47,731 nucleotides of DNA from Escherichia phage JulesPiccard, in sequence record MZ501087. One strand, 5' to 3'. This document shows, one piece after another, positions 3,978-42,450 of this stretch. Position numbers and translations under genes: made by a program. How positions within the stretch are numbered: position 1 is the first letter of the stretch; the number at the start of each line of letters is the position of its first letter. Below the pieces are notes generated by a model, which was not told where the DNA came from, searched no databases, and worked only from the letters and a program-made list of their open reading frames with translations.

Positions 3978-5066
3978 ATGTATAAAGTCCGCTATGACAG
4001 CGCAAAGTTTAAGGCAACAATCGACGAGAATGGATTCTTAGTCGATACGCCTGTGGTAGCGCGCCTCGGCGTGCAAGTCTACTACATGGAGGATGGTCGC
4101 ACGGTTCGAGAGTTTCGCCCAGCAGAGGAAGTTTTCAAGGATGAATCCCTCGCAAGCTACCAGGGTAAGCCAATGACCCTGGATCACGTCTTCGTTAACT
4201 CTGAGAACGCTAAAGAGGTGGTAGTAGGTTCAGTTTCTGGCAAAGCTGAACCTCTTGGCAGTTCAGTGGTTGCGCCAATCGTTATTTACGACAACGCAGC
4301 CATTCAGGAAGCTATGGCAGGTAACGCCAAGGAGTTGTCAGTCGGATACTCTGCAATTCTTGACGAAACCCCAGGATGGGGAGACCCTGCTACTGGCGAG
4401 TACATCCTTAAATCTGATGCTGATGAGAAATTCGATGCACCAGAAGGATGGCAGGAGTTCGACGCAATTCAGCGTGACATTAAAGTGAACCATCTCGCAA
4501 TGGTATATCGCGGTCGCGCAGGTATTGCCAAATTGAATATGGACGGTGAGCAGGAAAACCCGTATACTACTGACGTTGATATCAATAAAGAGGATAAACA
4601 GGAAATGATTAAGATTAAACTCGACGGCGCGCAGGAATTTGAGGTCGCACCGGAAGTCGCTTCTCACATCGAAGCGCTGAACGCAAAGGCTGATACCGCA
4701 ATCGCAGAGCGCGACGCACTGAAAGCTAAAGTAGACGCAATGCCTGCCGAAATCGAGGCTGCCGTAGCTAAAGCTAAAGCAGACGCTGAAGCACTAGCTG
4801 CCCTGGTTGCTGTTGCCGCTGAAGCTGGTGTGAAAGCTGACGGTCTGGATGCTAAAGGCATTAAAGTTGCTTACGTTAAAGAAGTCTCCGGCCTTGATGT
4901 TGCTGAGAAATCCGACGCGTACATCGACGCAGCGTTCGACATTGCCAAAGATTCTGATAAAATGGCTGAAGTACGTAAAGCAACTAACGCTTCCAACAAA
5001 TCTGACAGCGCCGATGAGCCTAAGAAATTAGACCCGCGTGCTCGTTTAGCTAAAATTAAGAAATAA
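3978..5066 (+). CDS. putative prohead protease / scaffolding protein
   Basis: RBS GAGGAG 7 nt before ATG 3978; C-terminal Ala/Glu/Lys-rich predicted coiled coil typical of scaffolds; between portal and capsid. Confidence 0.55.
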   Translation: MYKVRYDSAKFKATIDENGFLVDTPVVARLGVQVYYMEDGRTVREFRPAEEVFKDESLASYQGKPMTLDHVFVNSENAKEVVVGSVSGKAEPLGSSVVAPIVIYDNAAIQEAMAGNAKELSVGYSAILDETPGWGDPATGEYILKSDADEKFDAPEGWQEFDAIQRDIKVNHLAMVYRGRAGIAKLNMDGEQENPYTTDVDINKEDKQEMIKIKLDGAQEFEVAPEVASHIEALNAKADTAIAERDALKAKVDAMPAEIEAAVAKAKADAEALAALVAVAAEAGVKADGLDAKGIKVAYVKEVSGLDVAEKSDAYIDAAFDIAKDSDKMAEVRKATNASNKSDSADEPKKLDPRARLAKIKK

Positions 5067-5078
5067 GGAGTTATAAAC

Positions 5079-5600
5079 ATGGCAATTCGTTCCGTAGCAC
5101 TGGCTGGTATGGTTTCTGATACCTCTCTGTATAACATCGACGGCGCTTGCGTAGTTGGTGGTAGTGATGCAATTCCGGTTGGTACTGTTGTTGGAGTTAC
5201 ATCCGCTCAGCCTGTGGATGGTCACAAGGTTGTTGGCCTCCCTGCTGTGACTGGCACACCAGTTAAACCTTATGGTGTTGTTGTTAAATCTCATTACGAG
5301 ACACCGGATGGCACCGCTCGCGTAAATGAAGCAGTTAACGTAATGACTCATGGTCGAATCTGGGTTCGAACCACTTTAGAAGCTGCGCCAGATTTTGGTA
5401 GTAAGGTTTTCGTAAACGCAAGTGGCGTTGTTGCTACCGAAGCAGCAGGCACTACTTGGGAGACTGGCTTTACATTTGCTGGCGGTTATGTGTCTGCCTA
5501 TGCTGGCGGCGCCAACCCAATTCAGCAAGGAGAAAGCGTTGATGGTGCACTAGTTGAGGTTCAGCTTATTCAATCCGCAGACTCAACTGTTGCAGCTTAA
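5079..5600 (+). CDS. putative head decoration/structural protein
   Basis: RBS TAAGGAG; Gly/Val/Thr-rich 173 aa in head module; followed by intrinsic terminator. Confidence 0.4.
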   Translation: MAIRSVALAGMVSDTSLYNIDGACVVGGSDAIPVGTVVGVTSAQPVDGHKVVGLPAVTGTPVKPYGVVVKSHYETPDGTARVNEAVNVMTHGRIWVRTTLEAAPDFGSKVFVNASGVVATEAAGTTWETGFTFAGGYVSAYAGGANPIQQGESVDGALVEVQLIQSADSTVAA

Positions 5601-9900: not shown

Positions 9901-9905
9901 TTGCA

Positions 9906-9948
9906 TAGCATTTTTTGATAAAGCATTAATTTAATCTTCCTGTATAGT
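9906..9948 (+). promoter_or_regulatory. conserved promoter/operator element
   Basis: TAGCATTTTTTGATAAA ... TATAGT ... CATCGAAACGAAATGAG leader. Confidence 0.55.
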
Positions 9949-13915: not shown

Positions 13916-13920
13916 TTAAT

Positions 13921-13945
13921 GGGGCTTCGGCCCCTAAGGATTTTT
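13921..13945 (+). terminator. hairpin (possible attenuator) after tape measure
   Basis: GGGGC-TTCG-GCCCC followed by TAAGGATTTTT. Confidence 0.4.
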
Positions 13946-14296
13946 ATGGCAATTGATACATTTACCTGGTGTACTCAGATTCAAGGTGGCTCAGCCTCCT
14001 TTAGTAACACGAATAACGTTCGCATAGTTAGCTTTGGCAATGGTTATGAACAGCGTGGGACTGGCGGCTACCGAAGCAACAAGCGAAGTTACCAGATGAC
14101 CTACACTAACAAGGACTGGCGTAATGTGATGGATTTCTGTTTCAACCACATCATCACTCCATTCTTCTGGACTACGCCGCAAGGTGATACGTCAATGTTT
14201 GTGATCCAGCAGGATAGCATTAGCGTTACACCACTCAGTAATGAAGTTCAGACTGTAAGCATGCAATTCGTGGAAGTCTTTAGCTCAATGCGTTAA
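13946..14296 (+). CDS. minor tail protein (lambda gpM-like)
   Basis: 116 aa immediately after tape measure; conserved lambda-like order H-M-L-K-I-J. Confidence 0.6.
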   Translation: MAIDTFTWCTQIQGGSASFSNTNNVRIVSFGNGYEQRGTGGYRSNKRSYQMTYTNKDWRNVMDFCFNHIITPFFWTTPQGDTSMFVIQQDSISVTPLSNEVQTVSMQFVEVFSSMR

Positions 14297-14297
14297 A

Positions 14298-14340
14298 TAG
14301 CACTTTTTGCTAAACAGTATTGACATGGATGTCGTATATT
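14298..14340 (+). promoter_or_regulatory. conserved promoter/operator element
   Basis: TAGCACTTTTTGCTAAA, 22 bp, TATATT; leader ACAAAACGAGAGGAGG. Confidence 0.55.
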
Positions 14341-14370
14341 TAATTCAACAAAACGAGAGGAGGATATGAT

Positions 14371-14745
14371 ATGAAGGCTATTTTTAAAGGATCTGCTGGT
14401 AGTGAATTCCTGGTTAAGCGCAACTTTACAGTTGGCAAGGAGTATGATCTGGAAGATGCCAAATTCGGTTTTTACATAACTCAGGATAATCAAGGCAAAA
14501 GCTTGATTTTTCAGAATGGAGTTGATTACACATTTGATTTAGTTGTTGCTGATAGCTTTATCAAGAGCACTGTATGCGAAGATTCAGGCAATGAGGTGGT
14601 AAAGCGCAATGAGAACAAGATGGTCTACCGAATGAATGGTGTAGATGTGACTTGTGACTACTTTAGCGAAAAGCTGTTAGAGGTTGAGTTACTTAAAGCT
14701 AAAGGCGTTTCGGTATTTATCGACTTCGAAGTTAGTTTTGAATAG
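14371..14745 (+). CDS. hypothetical protein, cargo gene (paralog of 2248..2625)
   Basis: RBS GAGAGGAGG; own promoter element at 14298 and terminator at 14765; C-terminal IDFEVSFE. Confidence 0.6.
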   Translation: MKAIFKGSAGSEFLVKRNFTVGKEYDLEDAKFGFYITQDNQGKSLIFQNGVDYTFDLVVADSFIKSTVCEDSGNEVVKRNENKMVYRMNGVDVTCDYFSEKLLEVELLKAKGVSVFIDFEVSFE

Positions 14746-14763
14746 TTAAGGATGATGTTAAAC

Positions 14764-14793
14764 TAGGTCAATCGAGAGATTGGCCTTTTTTTA
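14764..14793 (+). terminator. intrinsic terminator after cargo gene
   Basis: imperfect hairpin plus TTTTTTT. Confidence 0.5.
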
Positions 14794-14805
14794 TTGGAGA
14801 AAATC

Positions 14806-15561
14806 ATGTTAAGTCCAAAGTTTGAAAATCAGTTGCAAAGCCTTTTCCCTGGCGAGATTGTAACTCTAATCCAGGTTGACGGCACGTCCTTCGGAAGTCT
14901 CGTTTACAATTTCCACAATGAGAACATTTCATACACACCTGAAGAAATCATGCTAGCCCAAATGAATGGTGAGCCACTACCAGAGAAAACCATCACCTTT
15001 CGTGGTGAAGAGTACGGCCCAAGACCTTTTGGAATCTCGGGCATAAATATGACCTCTGACGGCAAGGCAAACAAGGTTACGCTAACAGTATCAAACGTAG
15101 ACCAGCGCATTAGCGCATTGATTCGCACATACAACGGACTTGTTAAAGCTAAGGTTACCATCTGGATTACTACGCGAGATAACATCAATGAAGACGGAAG
15201 CATTGCTGATGGGGATTATCGCAGATTCGTTTACTTCATTGAGCGACCAAAGCAGGTTGACTACAAGACGGCATCATTTGAGCTAAGCAGCCCGATGGAT
15301 ATGGATGGTATTTACATTCCTGCTCGACTTGTTCAGTCTGTTTGCTATTTCGCCTCTAGGGGTTGGTATCGTAGCGGTAATGGTTGCGCTTATGCTGGAA
15401 ACAGATACTTCAACAAGGATGACGAGCCAGTATCAGACCCTTCATTAGACTTCTGCGCAGGAACTGTTAACAGTTGCAAGCTTAGATTTGGTGAGAATAA
15501 TCAGTTAGATTTCGGCGGTTGCGCTGCAGCAAGCCTTCAGGCTAAAGCTAATCAATCATAG
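14806..15561 (+). CDS. minor tail protein (lambda gpL-like)
   Basis: 251 aa with C-terminal Cys cluster (CYFA..CAYAG..CAG..C..CAAA) as in Fe-S binding gpL; position. Confidence 0.7.
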   Translation: MLSPKFENQLQSLFPGEIVTLIQVDGTSFGSLVYNFHNENISYTPEEIMLAQMNGEPLPEKTITFRGEEYGPRPFGISGINMTSDGKANKVTLTVSNVDQRISALIRTYNGLVKAKVTIWITTRDNINEDGSIADGDYRRFVYFIERPKQVDYKTASFELSSPMDMDGIYIPARLVQSVCYFASRGWYRSGNGCAYAGNRYFNKDDEPVSDPSLDFCAGTVNSCKLRFGENNQLDFGGCAAASLQAKANQS

Positions 15562-15606
15562 CACTTTTTGTTAAGAGGATGGTCCAGACTTGGGCTATCC
15601 TATAAT
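15559..15606 (+). promoter_or_regulatory. conserved promoter/operator element (upstream of HNH gene)
   Basis: TAGCACTTTTTGTTAAG ... TATAAT. Confidence 0.5.
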
Positions 15607-15628
15607 CTCTTATATTGGTGGTTAAAAT

Positions 15629-16111
15629 ATGAATTGGAATGATTACTTTAGATATGAAAGCGGCAACCTATACTGGTTGACAAAGAGAAAGGGAGTTAGA
15701 GCAAGTGGACTTGCCGGCTATTCAAGGAAGGACGGTTATGTTCAGGTTAGAGTTTCAGGAAAAGCCTTCCTTGCGCACAGAATTATATGGGAAATGCATA
15801 ATGGATTGATACCAGAAGGCATGGAGATAGATCACATAAACCACAACCCAGGAGACAATTCAATCGAAAATCTTAGGGTCGTCACATGCAAAGACAATCA
15901 AATGAATAGACCAATCAGGCTGTTGAGTAAAAGCGGCTTTAACGGTGTCACTTGGCACAAAAAATCAAAAAAATGGCAGGCAACGGCAAGAGTTAATGGA
16001 AAAACAAGATACTTCGGTCTGTTTGATGATCCAATCGATGCCTCAAAGGCAATGCGTTCATTTTTTATGGAAAATAATTTCCATCCAAATCATGGGGAAA
16101 AACGATGTTAA
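15629..16111 (+). CDS. HNH homing endonuclease (HNH plus AP2-like DNA-binding region)
   Basis: LAHRIIWEMHNGLIPEGMEIDHINHNPGDNSIENLRVVTCKDNQ (HNH motif); GVTWHKKSKKWQA..NGK..YFGLFD (AP2-like); own promoter element. Confidence 0.8.
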   Translation: MNWNDYFRYESGNLYWLTKRKGVRASGLAGYSRKDGYVQVRVSGKAFLAHRIIWEMHNGLIPEGMEIDHINHNPGDNSIENLRVVTCKDNQMNRPIRLLSKSGFNGVTWHKKSKKWQATARVNGKTRYFGLFDDPIDASKAMRSFFMENNFHPNHGEKRC

Positions 16112-16863
16112 CACCAAAAGTTAAACTAGAAATCTTCCAGCACGCAAAGGAAGTTTACCCGCACGAATGCTGTGGGGTTGTCACACAGAAGGGTCGAGCC
16201 CAGAAATATCACAGAATCACCAATGCCAGCAAAGACCCTGAAAATGAGTTTATCCTTGATTCAAATGAGTATGCAGATGTTCTCTTTGAGTTAGCTCACA
16301 ATGAATCTATTGTTTATGTAGTTCACTCTCACACTGGTGACGGTGCCACAACAAGACCCAGTCCTGCGGATATCTGTAGCTGTAATGAATGCGAGATTCC
16401 TTACGTTATTGTAAGCATTCCTGAGGGAGACATGCGGATTCTTGAGCCATCAAAAATGCCACTGATTGGTCGGCCGTGGGGTTTGGGTAGCTTTGATTGC
16501 TGGGAGTTGGTTATGGCATTTCACAAGAAATACGGCGTCAAACTGAATGACTATCGCGTTAATTACCCGTGGTGGGAGAAGAAGTACGGAGAAAATATCT
16601 ATGATGACAACTGGATTAAGGAAGGTTTTGATCTGGTAAAAACTTCGGATATTCCTGTTGGCTCAATGATTATGATGCAGGTGCAAAGCGAGGTTACAAA
16701 CCACGCCGGAATCTACATTGGCAATAACAGGTTCATCCACCATCTCTATGGTAAAATGAGCTCTGTTGATATCTACTCCGATTACTGGCGAGAGCGCACC
16801 GTGAGAATCGTTCGTCACAAGGATTTACCAGAGGATGTAATTTATGACCCAGAAACTGATTGA
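16105..16863 (+). CDS. tail assembly protein (lambda gpK-like; JAB/MPN plus NlpC/P60-like)
   Basis: HSHTGDG..SPAD (JAMM-like) and downstream Cys/His region; position after L. Confidence 0.7.
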   Translation: MLTPKVKLEIFQHAKEVYPHECCGVVTQKGRAQKYHRITNASKDPENEFILDSNEYADVLFELAHNESIVYVVHSHTGDGATTRPSPADICSCNECEIPYVIVSIPEGDMRILEPSKMPLIGRPWGLGSFDCWELVMAFHKKYGVKLNDYRVNYPWWEKKYGENIYDDNWIKEGFDLVKTSDIPVGSMIMMQVQSEVTNHAGIYIGNNRFIHHLYGKMSSVDIYSDYWRERTVRIVRHKDLPEDVIYDPETD

Positions 16864-17416
16864 TATTAAGTTAGGCCTGTCTCTAGGCCGTAAGTTTGGC
16901 AAGATTCACCAAATGGCGGTGAGTAGCGTGCCAGAGGCTATGCGAGCGCTTTGTTCTCAGATTCCAGCATTCAAAGAATTTATGAACAGTCATGTTGGTC
17001 AAAATACTAGATATGCAATTTTCGTTGATGGCAAAAATGTGAATGAACATAGAATTTCTGATTTCAGTGCCGTTCAGGAGATACGCATCTTACCAATACC
17101 TCAAGGTCGAAAGTCTGGCGGTTTGTTTCAGACAATACTAGGCGCCGCGCTTATCACGGTTGGCATCTTCACTGGCCAGATTTATCTTGTCGGTGCTGGT
17201 GTATCTTTGGCTGCTGGTGGTATTGCGCAATTACTTTCACCACAGGCAACTGGTTTGAAGACCCAGGACAACCAAACAAGCAACCGCGCATCATACGCAT
17301 TTGGCTCTGCTGTTAACACGGTAGCTGCTGGTTATCCGGTTTGCTTACCTTATGGATATCGAACGGTTGGCGGATCCGTGTTTAGTGCCGGATCGTATAG
17401 TGAAGACATTGCTTAA
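16844..17416 (+). CDS. tail assembly protein (lambda gpI-like)
   Basis: 190 aa with C-terminal Gly/Ala-rich hydrophobic region; overlaps K; precedes J. Confidence 0.6.
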   Translation: MTQKLIDIKLGLSLGRKFGKIHQMAVSSVPEAMRALCSQIPAFKEFMNSHVGQNTRYAIFVDGKNVNEHRISDFSAVQEIRILPIPQGRKSGGLFQTILGAALITVGIFTGQIYLVGAGVSLAAGGIAQLLSPQATGLKTQDNQTSNRASYAFGSAVNTVAAGYPVCLPYGYRTVGGSVFSAGSYSEDIA

Positions 17417-17424
17417 ATACCATA

Positions 17425-17446
17425 CCCGCCTAGTGCGGGTTTTTTA
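17425..17446 (+). terminator. intrinsic terminator
   Basis: CCCGC-CTAGT-GCGGG then TTTTTT. Confidence 0.7.
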
Positions 17447-29090: not shown

Positions 29091-29103
29091 TTTATTACCT
29101 CAA

Positions 29104-29145
29104 TAGCATTTTTTGTTAAAAGTCATTCTGATTTGATGGTAGTAT
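29104..29145 (+). promoter_or_regulatory. conserved promoter/operator element in divergent region (HTH gene / helicase)
   Basis: TAGCATTTTTTGTTAAA ... TAGTAT. Confidence 0.5.
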
Positions 29146-31187: not shown

Positions 31188-31607
31188 ATGAATATTACAG
31201 ACAAAGTTGATTACATTGAGTTTTACCCGGGCCCGGTTAAGTCATGCCCCAAAGAGGACGACGAACAGATCTTTTGCTCTGATTGGGTTAAGTACCATTA
31301 TCCTCAGATTATCTATTGGCATACCGTTAATGAGGGGAAGAAATCAATGTGCGCAGCCAGAAAGGATGCAGCAAAAGGCCTCCTTAAAGGCGTATCAGAC
31401 TGCCTATTTCTAATACCTGAACCATTGCGAGGAAGGTATCCATTTGGCGCAATAGAGCTAAAGAGGGCAGGGAAAACGCAGGCTAGTCCAGTCAGCGAAG
31501 ATCAGAAGGCATTCCTGAAGAGCGTAAGAGAATCAGGCGGCTTCTCGGCTGTGGCCTACGGTCGTGAAGGTTTTCTTGCGGCGTTCAGAGAAATGATTTC
31601 AAAATAG
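31188..31607 (+). CDS. VRR-NUC domain nuclease
   Basis: GVSDCLFLIP..GAIELKR (D..ELK nuclease motif); 1-nt gap after helicase stop. Confidence 0.6.
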   Translation: MNITDKVDYIEFYPGPVKSCPKEDDEQIFCSDWVKYHYPQIIYWHTVNEGKKSMCAARKDAAKGLLKGVSDCLFLIPEPLRGRYPFGAIELKRAGKTQASPVSEDQKAFLKSVRESGGFSAVAYGREGFLAAFREMISK

Positions 31608-31647
31608 CACTAATTGCTAAAGAGATTTCGCAGGGATGCGATATAGT
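31605..31647 (+). promoter_or_regulatory. conserved promoter/operator element
   Basis: TAGCACTAATTGCTAAAG-N-TATAGT-TACTCCATCGAAACGAAAC. Confidence 0.55.
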
Positions 31648-32251: not shown

Positions 32252-32448
32252 TTGGCATCTGCGTAAAAACAAATGGAAGTTTTACTTTATTCGATGAGTA
32301 CGAGATTAATTTTGGCGATGATTTTTATTCAGACAAGATTGTAGTAATGAGCGATGATGGATGGAATTACATTATTGATTATCAAGGTGATGGCTACTAC
32401 GGGTGCGTAGACGCGAAAGGAAAAGAAGTTAGTTTCTTGGTTGAATAG
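32248..32448 (+). CDS. hypothetical protein
   Basis: 66-aa ORF, ATGA overlap; stop TAG forms part of promoter element at 32446. Confidence 0.4.
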   Translation: MIGICVKTNGSFTLFDEYEINFGDDFYSDKIVVMSDDGWNYIIDYQGDGYYGCVDAKGKEVSFLVE

Positions 32449-32488
32449 CATTTTTTGTTAAAACTAAAATCCAGGGATGGATTATATT
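32446..32488 (+). promoter_or_regulatory. conserved promoter/operator element
   Basis: TAGCATTTTTTGTTAAA ... TATATT. Confidence 0.5.
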
Positions 32489-39489: not shown

Positions 39490-39533
39490 ACTATACCCTC
39501 GCCAGACCATAACGTCATTAACAAAAAGTGCTA
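39490..39533 (-). promoter_or_regulatory. conserved promoter/operator element (heads minus operon)
   Basis: minus strand TAGCACTTTTTGTTAAT ... TATAGT ... CAACAACGAGGGGG. Confidence 0.5.
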
Positions 39534-39544
39534 TTCGTCAGATT

Positions 39545-42077: not shown

Positions 42078-42377
42078 TTGGCGGTTAGCGAATGCGAATC
42101 GGCACGCGATCGCAAGGTGGCTGTTTGCTATTGCGTTGGTGGCAATGAGTTCATCAATGGTTGCGAATGCGAGTATGAAGTTGATGAGCGCGAGGCGGGG
42201 TGTGAGCCGCGCATTATTCATATCGTACAAGATGCATTCGTCTCTGACTTAAAAGGTGATCACCGCTGGGAATCTGTTAAGTTTGGAAAGCTTAACATTG
42301 ATGGAAAAGATCTTGGCGATGCATACGCAATCATAAATCCTGATGGCGGCGTAGTGGCTCAGTTCTACATCAAATAG
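42078..42377 (+). CDS. Cys-rich hypothetical protein (no ATG; TTG start or readthrough product)
   Basis: open frame from 42039 with no Met; CYC..C.C motifs; stop TAG forms promoter element 42375. Confidence 0.35.
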   Translation: MAVSECESARDRKVAVCYCVGGNEFINGCECEYEVDEREAGCEPRIIHIVQDAFVSDLKGDHRWESVKFGKLNIDGKDLGDAYAIINPDGGVVAQFYIK

Positions 42378-42417
42378 CACGATTTGTTAAAAGGGGATTC
42401 ATCCTGACTGGTATAAT
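42375..42417 (+). promoter_or_regulatory. conserved promoter/operator element
   Basis: TAGCACGATTTGTTAAA-N22-TATAAT. Confidence 0.55.
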
Positions 42418-42450
42418 CCCCACATCAACCACACGAATGGAAGTTAACAA

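Follow-up and report, generated by a model that had tools for sequence, protein, structure and literature searches.

The junction of tail genes L and K in Escherichia phage JulesPiccard (Bas03) carries a cassette of approximately 532 nt that is probably a free-standing gene for a homing endonuclease with an HNH_3 (I-HmuI-like) domain and an AP2 domain. The window analyzed here is the whole genome of this T1-like coliphage (MZ501087; 47,731 nt). The ORF of the cassette (15629 to 16111, plus strand; ATG start; 160 amino acids) is deposited in GenBank as the hypothetical protein bas03_0025. Judged from its sequence, bas03_0025 is a divergent HNH-AP2 endonuclease of a known type, i.e., the usual sort of phage passenger gene. 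The first-pass annotation had proposed that an HNH-AP2 homing endonuclease was inserted between L and K at 15559 to 16111; this range corresponds to the ORF plus a 67-nt leader, with 15559 falling in the TAG stop of gene L. The proposal is supported by the HNH_3 score, the predicted fold, and the patchy presence of such genes at the L-K junction, as described below.

RESULTS

Genomic context of the cassette

The upstream flank is the tail-tip gene L (14794 to 15561, plus strand; Pfam Phage_tail_L, E = 4.8e-43; PHROG 18), the start of which may instead be the ATG at 14806 because relatives annotate a gene of 756 to 768 nt. The TAG stop of L (15559 to 15561) overlaps the first bases of a 17-nt motif that opens the leader. 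The downstream flank is the tail-tip gene K (16105 to 16863, plus strand; Pfam Prok-JAB plus NlpC/P60; PHROG 30), followed by gene I (16844 to 17416; Pfam Lambda_tail_I). Apart from the cassette, the M-L-K-I-J block had been described as conserved, which proved incorrect: a second accessory ORF (14371 to 14745) interrupts the block between gene M (13919 to 14296; Pfam Phage_min_tail) and gene L.

The G+C content of the HNH ORF was 39.8%, compared with 44.7% for the genome, 44.5% for L, and 43.6% for K. A tblastn search of the window detected no HNH gene other than bas03_0025. In a search of 5.8 billion proteins, the product matched P0001 of phage JulesPiccard at 100% identity, and the next homologue showed only ~50 to 52% identity; no other protein in the databases searched exceeded 52%, and no recent transfer event was visible.

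Nuclease and DNA-binding domains

The ORF product matched the Pfam HNH_3 profile (E = 9.7e-22; 76.8 bits versus a cut-off of 24.8) over residues 48 to 92 (15770 to 15904, plus strand) and profile positions 2 to 46 of 46, and it matched PHROG 99, "HNH endonuclease" (E = 1.7e-60). Missing HNH catalytic residues had been named as an argument against a nuclease; in an alignment of 37 homologues, all invariant residues were present in the product (H50, D68, H69, N81, L82, R83, N90, N93, and others). Four of these, the putative catalytic or metal-binding residues D68-H69 (15830 to 15835), N81 (15869 to 15871), and N90 (15896 to 15898; all plus strand), were also invariant or nearly so in a 52-sequence alignment. 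The catalytic roles that we presume for them follow published work on I-HmuI.

By both sequence and fold, the best match among solved structures was I-HmuI of Bacillus phage SPO1 (PDB 1U3E). A phmmer comparison with 1u3e (E = 0.0024) aligned the DH, NL, and NQ residues. The AlphaFold model of the ORF product had a pLDDT of 91, with no segment below 50, and contained a beta-beta-alpha-metal fold (strands at 65 to 69 and 82 to 86, followed by a helix at 87 to 91; pLDDT, >90). Foldseek ranked I-HmuI (1u3e_M) first for this model (E = 6.8e-4; probability, 1.00; 94 columns; 30% identity). The two proteins share the DH...NL...NQ motif and N-terminal beta-strands that precede the HNH core. I-HmuI is encoded in a group I intron, and its C-terminal DNA-binding domain is a helix-turn-helix. 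Unlike I-HmuI, the JulesPiccard gene is free-standing and intergenic, and it encodes an AP2 domain at the C terminus.

This AP2-type DNA-binding domain (approximately residues 105 to 148; 15941 to 16072, plus strand) was delineated on the basis of the model and Foldseek. The AP2-like region proposed earlier was clear in the model, which contained a three-stranded antiparallel sheet (107 to 110, 115 to 122, and 125 to 132) and a packed helix (135 to 148), although the Pfam AP2 score was below the cut-off (E = 6e-4; 20.5 bits versus 33.3; residues 103 to 131; profile positions 2 to 32 of 54). The C-terminal part matched AtERF1 (1gcc_A; probability, 0.99; root mean square deviation, 2.0 over 53 columns; target TM, 0.62), and further Foldseek matches included the AP2 domains of TEM1, WRI1, and ApiAP2 (7et4, 7wq5, and 3igm). 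Several homologues of the ORF product carry a precomputed PF00847 match.

Insertion into the L-K junction

Comparison of the L-K junction with those of insert-free relatives, which had been suggested as a check, revealed a 10-nt spacer between the L stop and K in CEB_EC3a and AHP24. In the alignment, the empty site of CEB_EC3a reads TAA-GGGGAAATAA-ATGTTAAC, and the filled site of the window reads TAG-[insert]-GGGGAAAAACG-ATGTTAAC. The inserted DNA thus extends from the L stop to the ribosome-binding site of K (approximately 15562 to 16093). At the right junction (16094 to 16111, plus strand), the K ribosome-binding site GGGGAA (16094 to 16099) is kept within the final HNH codons, and the HNH ORF runs 7 nt into gene K (K ATG at 16105; HNH TAA at 16109 to 16111), so that the overlap with the start of K noted previously is real. 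The ORF has its own translation signal, a Shine-Dalgarno-like GGTGG (15617 to 15621) located 7 nt ahead of the ATG. An Rfam search for an RNA family or intron returned no match at an accepted level (sub-threshold chance matches; E of at least 0.13), and intron families in particular were absent at E ≤ 1; the gene is intergenic and is not in an intron or intein.

The presence of the same gene at this position in all relatives would have been difficult to reconcile with an insertion; most relatives lacked the gene and carried the 10-nt spacer. Of 60 listed records, 47 showed the uninterrupted junction, a number that includes many near-identical isolates. Phages with the empty junction include JeanPiccard, T145P1, BEK phages, and RobRod40, among others, as well as CEB_EC3a and AHP24. 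Highly divergent HNH genes occupied exactly the same junction in DTL (ORF47), Rtp (rtp40), AHP42 (gp22), Sf12 (gp43/gp42), and the UViG L046, and the phages with an HNH gene at L-K belong to two subfamilies, the Braunvirinae and the Rogunavirinae. Of the six L-K copies, two were broken: a frameshift in Sf12 splits HNH and AP2 into separate ORFs (gp43 and gp42), and in L046, W16 is replaced by a stop codon. In other phages, including AugustePiccard, the junction holds unrelated, nuclease-free cargo, so occupation of the L-K site does not require this nuclease.

The genes of Rtp, DTL, AHP42, and Sf12 are annotated as HNH endonucleases, in contrast to the JulesPiccard gene, and share with it the insertion point, the domain order, and the run-on into K. 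Their leaders are likewise 67 nt long and 76 to 85% identical to that of the window, and their first 16 codons are of the same type; their proteins, however, are only 46 to 48% identical to that of the window. Because the ORF bodies are only 58 to 59% identical at the nucleotide level, we regard these genes as different alleles and not as orthologues related by simple descent. The six L-K HNH proteins shared 46 to 52% mutual identity and did not group as a clade in a rough neighbor-joining tree, which was star-like; this pattern does not establish one lineage with a single homing target. The closest protein relatives occupy other intergenic sites in related phages. Three of them (P0112, P0004, and P0009; identity, only about 50 to 59%) were considered as donors and rejected, being encoded near lysis genes or between helicase and VRR-NUC genes.

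Close to the junction, the L and K genes of JulesPiccard resembled those of the HNH-less CEB_EC3a and ZL19 (97% identity over the final complete 60-nt window of L) more than those of the HNH-bearing DTL and Rtp (87% and 78%, respectively). No co-conversion tract was detected in the L and K flanks relative to DTL and Rtp, and a donor with the same allele was absent from the databases searched.

A recurrent motif and predicted hairpins in the leader

The 5' end of the cassette is marked by the 17-nt motif ATAGCACTTTTTGTTAA (15558 to 15574, plus strand), which may be a promoter or a regulatory element of the upstream type. Eight matches (≤3 mismatches) were present in the genome, compared with 0.30 expected, and all eight were on the coding strand directly upstream of an ORF. 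The seven copies outside the L-K leader are located at 9905, 14297, 29103, 31604, 32445, 39534 (minus strand), and 42374; the genome of phage Rtp contained 11 copies, compared with 0.28 expected. The empty L-K junctions with the 10-nt spacer contained no copy.

Two overlapping −10-like hexamers follow on the plus strand. TATCCT (15596 to 15601) lies 22 nt after TTGTTA, the spacing also seen at the other motif copies, and shows no variation among the six L-K leaders. TATAAT (15601 to 15606) lies 27 nt after TTGTTA and is changed to TCTAAT in DTL and L046. A sigma-70 scan of 15562 to 15628 detected no canonical −35/−10 promoter, and promoter-like matches in the region did not outnumber those in shuffled sequences. 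A canonical sigma-70 promoter was rejected; the perfect TATAAT at 15601 is not accompanied by a −35 hexamer at 16 to 18 nt. Of the promoter element ascribed earlier to the gene, the recurrent motif and the −10-like hexamers thus stand, while the sigma-70 scan of the leader was blank.

A predicted 10-bp hairpin (15577 to 15600, plus strand; 15577 to 15586 pairs with 15591 to 15600; loop, GACU) stands between the motif and the −10-like hexamers. It was present in both the minimum-free-energy and centroid structures (z = −2.2 for the 79-nt leader), and 90% of cells paired over the six L-K leaders. Covariation across these leaders was not significant; because 126 of 500 shuffles scored as high with six sequences, the leader structure is neither supported nor refuted by this analysis. 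A weaker second hairpin was predicted in the RNAalifold consensus (15604 to 15623, plus strand; 15604 to 15609 pairs with 15618 to 15623), with 89% of cells pairing, no two-sided changes, and one U-U mismatch in the window. If formed, the second hairpin would enclose the Shine-Dalgarno-like GGTGG. A 15-mer search of IMG/VR for further leaders yielded 31 matches, all of which were attributable to chance except those to Rtp and Sf12, and a gapped leader pattern had zero matches in JGI metagenomes.

A kept leader and a swapped body

Across the six L-K copies, identity was 76 to 91% in the leader and 65 to 98% in the first 48 nt of the ORF, compared with 57 to 60% in the remaining ORF body for all pairs except the near-identical DTL/L046. 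Breakpoints were sharp and located right behind the leader and the first 16 codons. For example, AHP42 and Sf12 were near-identical up to codon 16, after which identity dropped abruptly and returned at the start of K. Between the subfamilies, the leader (76 to 84%) was better kept than the flanking L and K genes (68 to 76%).

This pattern bears on an alternative in which cassette exchange is driven by recombination. L-K would be a permissive slot with a resident promoter/hairpin leader, and its cargo, HNH gene bodies among it, would be swapped by ordinary homologous recombination anchored at the left by the leader together with codons 1 to 16 and at the right by the conserved FHxNHG end together with K; the nuclease may act elsewhere or contribute nothing to its own spread. 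This explanation partly overlaps homing and is compatible with it. The identity profile described above favors such exchange, as does the occurrence of the 17-nt motif at the start of other inserts: it opens the M-L insert of the window and, immediately past the L stop, the AugustePiccard L-K cargo, a homologue of which is carried at L-K by phiEB49. Shuffling mediated by PeSLs, which are promoter-terminator cassettes, is also documented in T4-like phages (PMC4122927; PMC2839356). However, the motif is absent from the empty junctions, so that motif-to-motif recombination leaves the first entry unexplained; a single motif copy borders the cassette, in contrast to the flanking pairs used in PeSL shuffling; and the ORF is intact with all residues that are invariant in the family (37 sequences), which is unexpected for functionless cargo. 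On balance, we consider recombination-driven exchange as the main explanation unlikely.

DISCUSSION

[quoted passage not shown] 2004, as cited in PMC10448857). Homing endonuclease genes in phages are clustered next to essential structural genes, and one can take the place of another at the same site (PMC10448857). The "IPA-HNH" genes of phage ICP1 (Barth et al. 2023, PMC10448857) resemble the JulesPiccard gene in their HNH-AP2 order, in their location beside essential structural genes, and in the interchangeability of different nuclease genes at one locus; the frameshift-split ICP1 gp115/gp116 is comparable to Sf12 gp43/gp42. They differ in that the ICP1 HNH domains diverge too far to be matched by the Pfam HNH_3 profile, in contrast to the canonical HNH_3 of JulesPiccard, and a conserved, site-resident leader does not feature in the description of the ICP1 genes (PMC10448857).

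The sporadic and decaying distribution at L-K, as read from the available genomes, fits a free-standing homing endonuclease gene, and the decay of the Sf12 and L046 copies is expected from the life cycle of such genes. The low G+C content relative to the flanks and the presence of the closest homologues at other sites are signs of foreign origin and of a mobile family. Several observations count against homing: the L and K flanks gave no co-conversion signal, the six L-K proteins did not group, other phages fill the junction with nuclease-free cargo, and no recent transfer was visible in the databases searched. We infer nuclease activity, a target site, a timing of expression, biased inheritance, and marker exclusion for a course of events such as the following. 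The gene would be transcribed from its own leader, the motif of which is common to other gene starts, or by read-through from L. The protein would bind DNA via its N-terminal beta-strands and the AP2 domain and would nick or cut the genome of a co-infecting relative in its uninterrupted L-K region. Recombinational repair on the HNH-carrying genome would then copy the cassette, possibly together with nearby L/K markers, into the cut genome. The insertion would split or displace the target and would thereby protect the carrier.

More tentatively, L-K may be a site-resident regulatory "landing pad" of the Drexlerviridae, with a kept leader, exchanged HNH bodies, and a new promoter class. The 67-nt leader would then combine the 17-nt motif, shared throughout the family, with a hairpin and a −10-like element whose 22-nt spacing is unusual; its observed identity across two subfamilies would be maintained by selection or by recurrent recombination, and the leader plus the first 16 codons, together with the FHxNHG end, would serve as recombination anchors. 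The leader can be likened to the PeSLs known from T4-like phages (Arbiol 2010, PMC2839356; Comeau 2014, PMC4122927), in which a short, conserved, repeated motif and a stem-loop precede variable accessory ORFs and mark recombination breakpoints; at L-K, the repeated motif precedes variable ORFs with a predicted stem-loop next to it, and breakpoints fall shortly behind the leader plus 16 codons. This likeness is a resemblance only: the L-K leader belongs to another phage family and, unlike PeSLs, has another sequence, a gap of ~22 nt to the −10-like hexamer, and only one flanking copy. If the landing-pad suggestion is correct, the 17-nt motif would head most accessory cassettes of these phages and would be to the T1 family what PeSLs are to T4-like phages.

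We also considered a domesticated nuclease that serves the phage in DNA packaging, host DNA degradation, or the exclusion of competitors without copying itself. Terminase-associated HNH proteins, such as HK97 gp74, help DNA packaging. In favor of domestication, HNH genes occur beside terminase genes in relatives, as with rtp20, which separates the small terminase gene from the large one. The JulesPiccard genome has no HNH gene apart from this ORF, which is intact, and the 7-nt overlap may provide co-expression or translational coupling with the essential gene K. Against domestication, most close relatives build tails and package DNA with an empty L-K junction, and L-K copies decay in relatives. 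The gene is located away from the terminase genes, and its I-HmuI/AP2 homing architecture is unlike that of short packaging-type HNH proteins; a terminase-associated packaging HNH was rejected on the basis of this position and architecture. Domestication appears highly improbable. Least probable of all is an inactive remnant or an AP2-type regulator without nuclease activity (e.g., one modulating tail-gene transcription): homing endonuclease DNA-binding domains have been co-opted as regulators elsewhere (PMC10448857), the AP2 region is divergent and under the Pfam cut-off, and broken copies already occur at L-K, but the JulesPiccard ORF is full length, retains the four putative catalytic residues, and yields a model that is confident along its whole length.

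The homing endonuclease reading has several consequences. The annotation of bas03_0025 should be corrected from a hypothetical protein to an HNH-AP2 endonuclease. As a recombination hotspot, the L-K region of these widely used BASEL and T1-like phages is best left out of phylogenies. JulesPiccard, with one intact gene, and JeanPiccard, with an empty L-K junction, belong to one collection and are ~85% identical around the junction, and they form a simple siphovirus pair for measuring homing and marker exclusion. To our knowledge, data on these two processes come mostly from T4. If the pattern of kept leaders and swapped bodies and the 17-nt motif hold, they would provide insight into how accessory genes are wired and shuffled among T1-like genomes.

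HNH-AP2 gene inserted between tail genes L and K

The complete genome of JulesPiccard (Bas03 of the BASEL collection; 47,731 bp) encodes a 160-amino-acid protein (15629-16111, plus strand) among homologues of the lambda-type tail genes M, L, K, and I. The first-pass annotation had marked a feature at 15559-16111, and this range was recovered as leader plus ORF because the L stop codon (TAG) lies at 15559-15561, a 67-nt leader separates the ORF from L, and the ORF terminates 7 nt within K (ATG at 16105). The product is 100% identical to the GenBank entry "hypothetical protein bas03_0025"; UniRef lists it simply as "HNH nuclease domain-containing." The G+C content of the ORF is 39.8% versus 44 to 45% for the flanks and the whole genome.

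Relative to the 10-nt junction of relatives, the HNH ORF region is an insertion. The L stop and K start are 10 nt apart in CEB_EC3a (TAA-GGGGAAATAA-ATG), AHP24 has an equally short junction, and so did 47 of 60 among the records listed for a query across the junction, many of these being near-identical isolates. In JulesPiccard, the ribosome-binding site of K (GGGGAA; 16094-16099) is retained and is separated from the L stop by approximately 532 nt (15562-16093); the HNH ORF runs across it into K up to the first stop.

Regarding protein domains, Pfam HNH_3 matched residues 48 to 92 (E = 9.7e-22), and PHROG 99 (HNH endonuclease) matched the whole protein (E = 1.7e-60). The invariant columns in an alignment of the protein with 36 homologues (including H50, D68, H69, N81, L82, R83, N90, and N93) were all retained. 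A sequence search for solved structures returned a single match, the homing endonuclease I-HmuI (1U3E), which shares the aligned DH, NL, and NQ motifs. I-HmuI was also the top PDB match (probability, 1.00) of an AlphaFold model based on 52 sequences (mean pLDDT, 91; every segment at least 50). The C terminus of the model, a three-stranded sheet plus a helix, resembled AP2/ERF domains (e.g., AtERF1, 1gcc; probability, 0.99; rmsd, 2.0 Å), while the Pfam AP2 match at residues 103 to 131 scored 20.5 bits, under the cut-off of 33.3. The HNH domain proposed at first pass was thus confirmed, and the two-domain HNH-AP2 architecture holds, with the AP2 part based on the predicted fold instead of the Pfam score.

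Distribution and other cargo of the tail block

An HNH gene occurs at exactly the same junction in DTL, Rtp (rtp40), AHP42, Sf12, and an IMG/VR contig (IMGVR_UViG_3300000290_000010), which together span the subfamilies Braunvirinae and Rogunavirinae. In two of the five, the gene is broken. A frameshift in Sf12 (L007, 1569-2046) separates an HNH ORF, annotated as "homing endonuclease," from an AP2 ORF, annotated as "putative transcription factor." The IMG/VR copy (424-908), a DTL-type allele with a 98% identical body (i.e., the ORF beyond its first 48 nt), has a stop at codon W16 (TGG to TGA). The gene is not universal at this position, many relatives having the 10-nt spacer or other cargo. Sporadic, recurrent, and decaying occurrence next to essential structural genes has been described for phage homing endonuclease genes, HNH-AP2 included, and the L-K distribution matches this pattern (PMC10448857).

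The other L-K cargo comprises, in ZL19 (L003, 2717-3214), an opposite-strand gene of the Rha family, a gene annotated as "virion structural protein" in vB_Ec-G8, and a small PHROG 14592 gene in AugustePiccard and phiEB49 (gp37). The last has a homologue (40 to 41% identity) in JulesPiccard between M and L, so the tail-gene junction that one cargo type occupies differs between phages. This M-L accessory cassette (14297-14790) consists of the 17-nt motif described below, a 124-aa ORF (14371-14745; G+C, 38.4%) assigned to PHROG 14592, "virion structural protein," and a hairpin that resembles a terminator and has a T-run (14765-14786). ZL19 carries a separate homing endonuclease gene between I and J (4680-5168), and phiEB49 has an HNH gene between the tape-measure gene and M. 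All intergenic junctions of the tail-tip block appear to be insertion hotspots in the phage family. JulesPiccard also has, at 17424-17440 between the end of I (17416) and the start of J (17458), a hairpin (ACCCGCCTAGTGCGGGT) that is rich in G+C, has a T-run, and scored as a terminator on both strands.

Conserved leader and exchanged gene bodies

Pairwise nucleotide identities were computed per segment among the six L-K copies. Identity was 76 to 91% in the leader, 65 to 98% in the first 48 nt of the ORF, and 57 to 60% in the remainder for all pairs but DTL and the IMG/VR contig (98%). Between AHP42 (L006, 1500-2060) and Sf12 (L007, 1500-2050), whose flanks are 87 to 88% identical, the leader and first 48 nt are 91 to 98% identical. 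This near-identity runs through the first 16 codons, as far as an LYW triplet, then drops abruptly to a mean of 58%, and recovers at the final codons and the K start. Abrupt divergence between kept ends rules out simple divergence in place; the breaks are sharp recombination breakpoints, and the whole HNH body has therefore been replaced behind a kept leader.

Between subfamilies, the leader is 76 to 84% identical versus 68 to 76% for the L and K flanks. The nearest proteins to the window allele, among 5.8 billion searched, are at most approximately 52% identical, and its closest relatives occupy other genomic sites; the L-K HNH proteins formed no group in a rough neighbor-joining tree. Near the junction, the window flanks are closer to HNH-less than to HNH-bearing relatives, and hence no co-conversion tract was visible in the L and K flanks.

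A recurrent motif in the leader

The first-pass annotation had also assigned the gene its own promoter element. A standard -35/-10 scan of the leader found no promoter, and no -35 hexamer pairs with the perfect TATAAT at 15601-15606. At its start, however, the leader carries a 17-nt motif, ATAGCACTTTTTGTTAA (15558-15574), and this motif (ATAGCAYTTTTTGTTAA; up to 3 mismatches) has 8 copies in the genome versus 0.30 expected (9905-9921, 14297-14313, 15558-15574, 29103-29119, 31604-31620, 32445-32461, 39518-39534 on the minus strand, and 42374-42390). All eight are on the coding strand, approximately 70 to 90 nt ahead of an ORF start. A TATAnT-like hexamer follows TTGTTA by 21 to 23 nt at the other seven copies, a gap unusual for a sigma-70 promoter; in the HNH leader, the corresponding distances are 22 nt for TATCCT, which is unchanged in all six L-K leaders, and 27 nt for TATAAT, which is TCTAAT in DTL and the IMG/VR contig. 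Rtp has 11 copies (0.28 expected), including those upstream of HNH genes rtp20 and rtp40 and of a helicase gene, and the motif also heads HNH genes elsewhere, e.g., at the tape-measure/M junction of phiEB49. The depositors of AHP42 recorded a promoter here, "similar to TTGACA(N24)TATAAT." The HNH gene thus bears a copy of a motif that recurs across the genome as a putative regulatory element, plausibly a promoter of unusual geometry. No description of the motif was found in the literature searched.

A 10-bp hairpin is predicted between the motif and the -10-like hexamers (15577-15600), in both minimum-free-energy and centroid folds (z = -2.2 for the 79-nt leader), and a second, weaker one would cover the Shine-Dalgarno sequence of the HNH ORF. 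In T4, expression of homing endonucleases (e.g., I-TevI) is known to be restrained by hairpins occluding the ribosome-binding site. Approximately 90% of positions pair across the six leaders, and one pair varies (CG, GC, UA); the covariation score was matched by 126 of 500 shuffles of these six sequences, so the leader structure is not established. Short palindromes, differing in sequence per copy, also lie between motif and hexamer at several further copies, e.g., ATCCA-GGGA-TGGAT (32462-32485) after the copy ending at 32461 and GGGGATT...AATCCCC (42391-42420), which spans a TATAAT at 42413.

Mechanism and significance

The analysis shows the two-domain architecture of the protein with its family-invariant residues, the insertion point, polymorphism at the site, recurrence and decay of the gene, and exchange of gene bodies. 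We consider it probable that the intact gene at L-K is a free-standing homing endonuclease gene of the HNH-AP2 type: in co-infecting relatives, its product would cut or nick an L-K region that is uninterrupted, repair of the cut genome would copy the cassette in, and the inserted cassette would shield the carrier genome. Nuclease activity, target, expression timing, and biased inheritance are the parts of this scheme that we infer. The main rival, or complement, is ordinary homologous recombination on the conserved leader, which would spread the cassette and exchange alleles in a manner resembling the promoter-terminator (PeSL) cassettes of T4-like phages (PMC4122927). We judge it unlikely; as the sole mechanism it is opposed by empty sites lacking the motif and by a cassette flanked by one motif copy only. 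A domesticated nuclease is considerably less credible, and an inactive remnant or regulator slightly less so again; most relatives have no gene at all at this junction, and the residues of the nuclease motif are retained.

The HNH-AP2 class of homing endonuclease gene is already well known, HNH genes at L-K had been annotated in Rtp, DTL, AHP42, and Sf12, and homing endonucleases infest BASEL phages according to the authors of that collection (PMC8594841). The additions made here are modest: a divergent JulesPiccard allele so far annotated as "hypothetical," a leader that is conserved while the body is exchanged behind it, and the genome-wide recurrence of a 17-nt motif that possibly represents a T1-family promoter or regulatory class.
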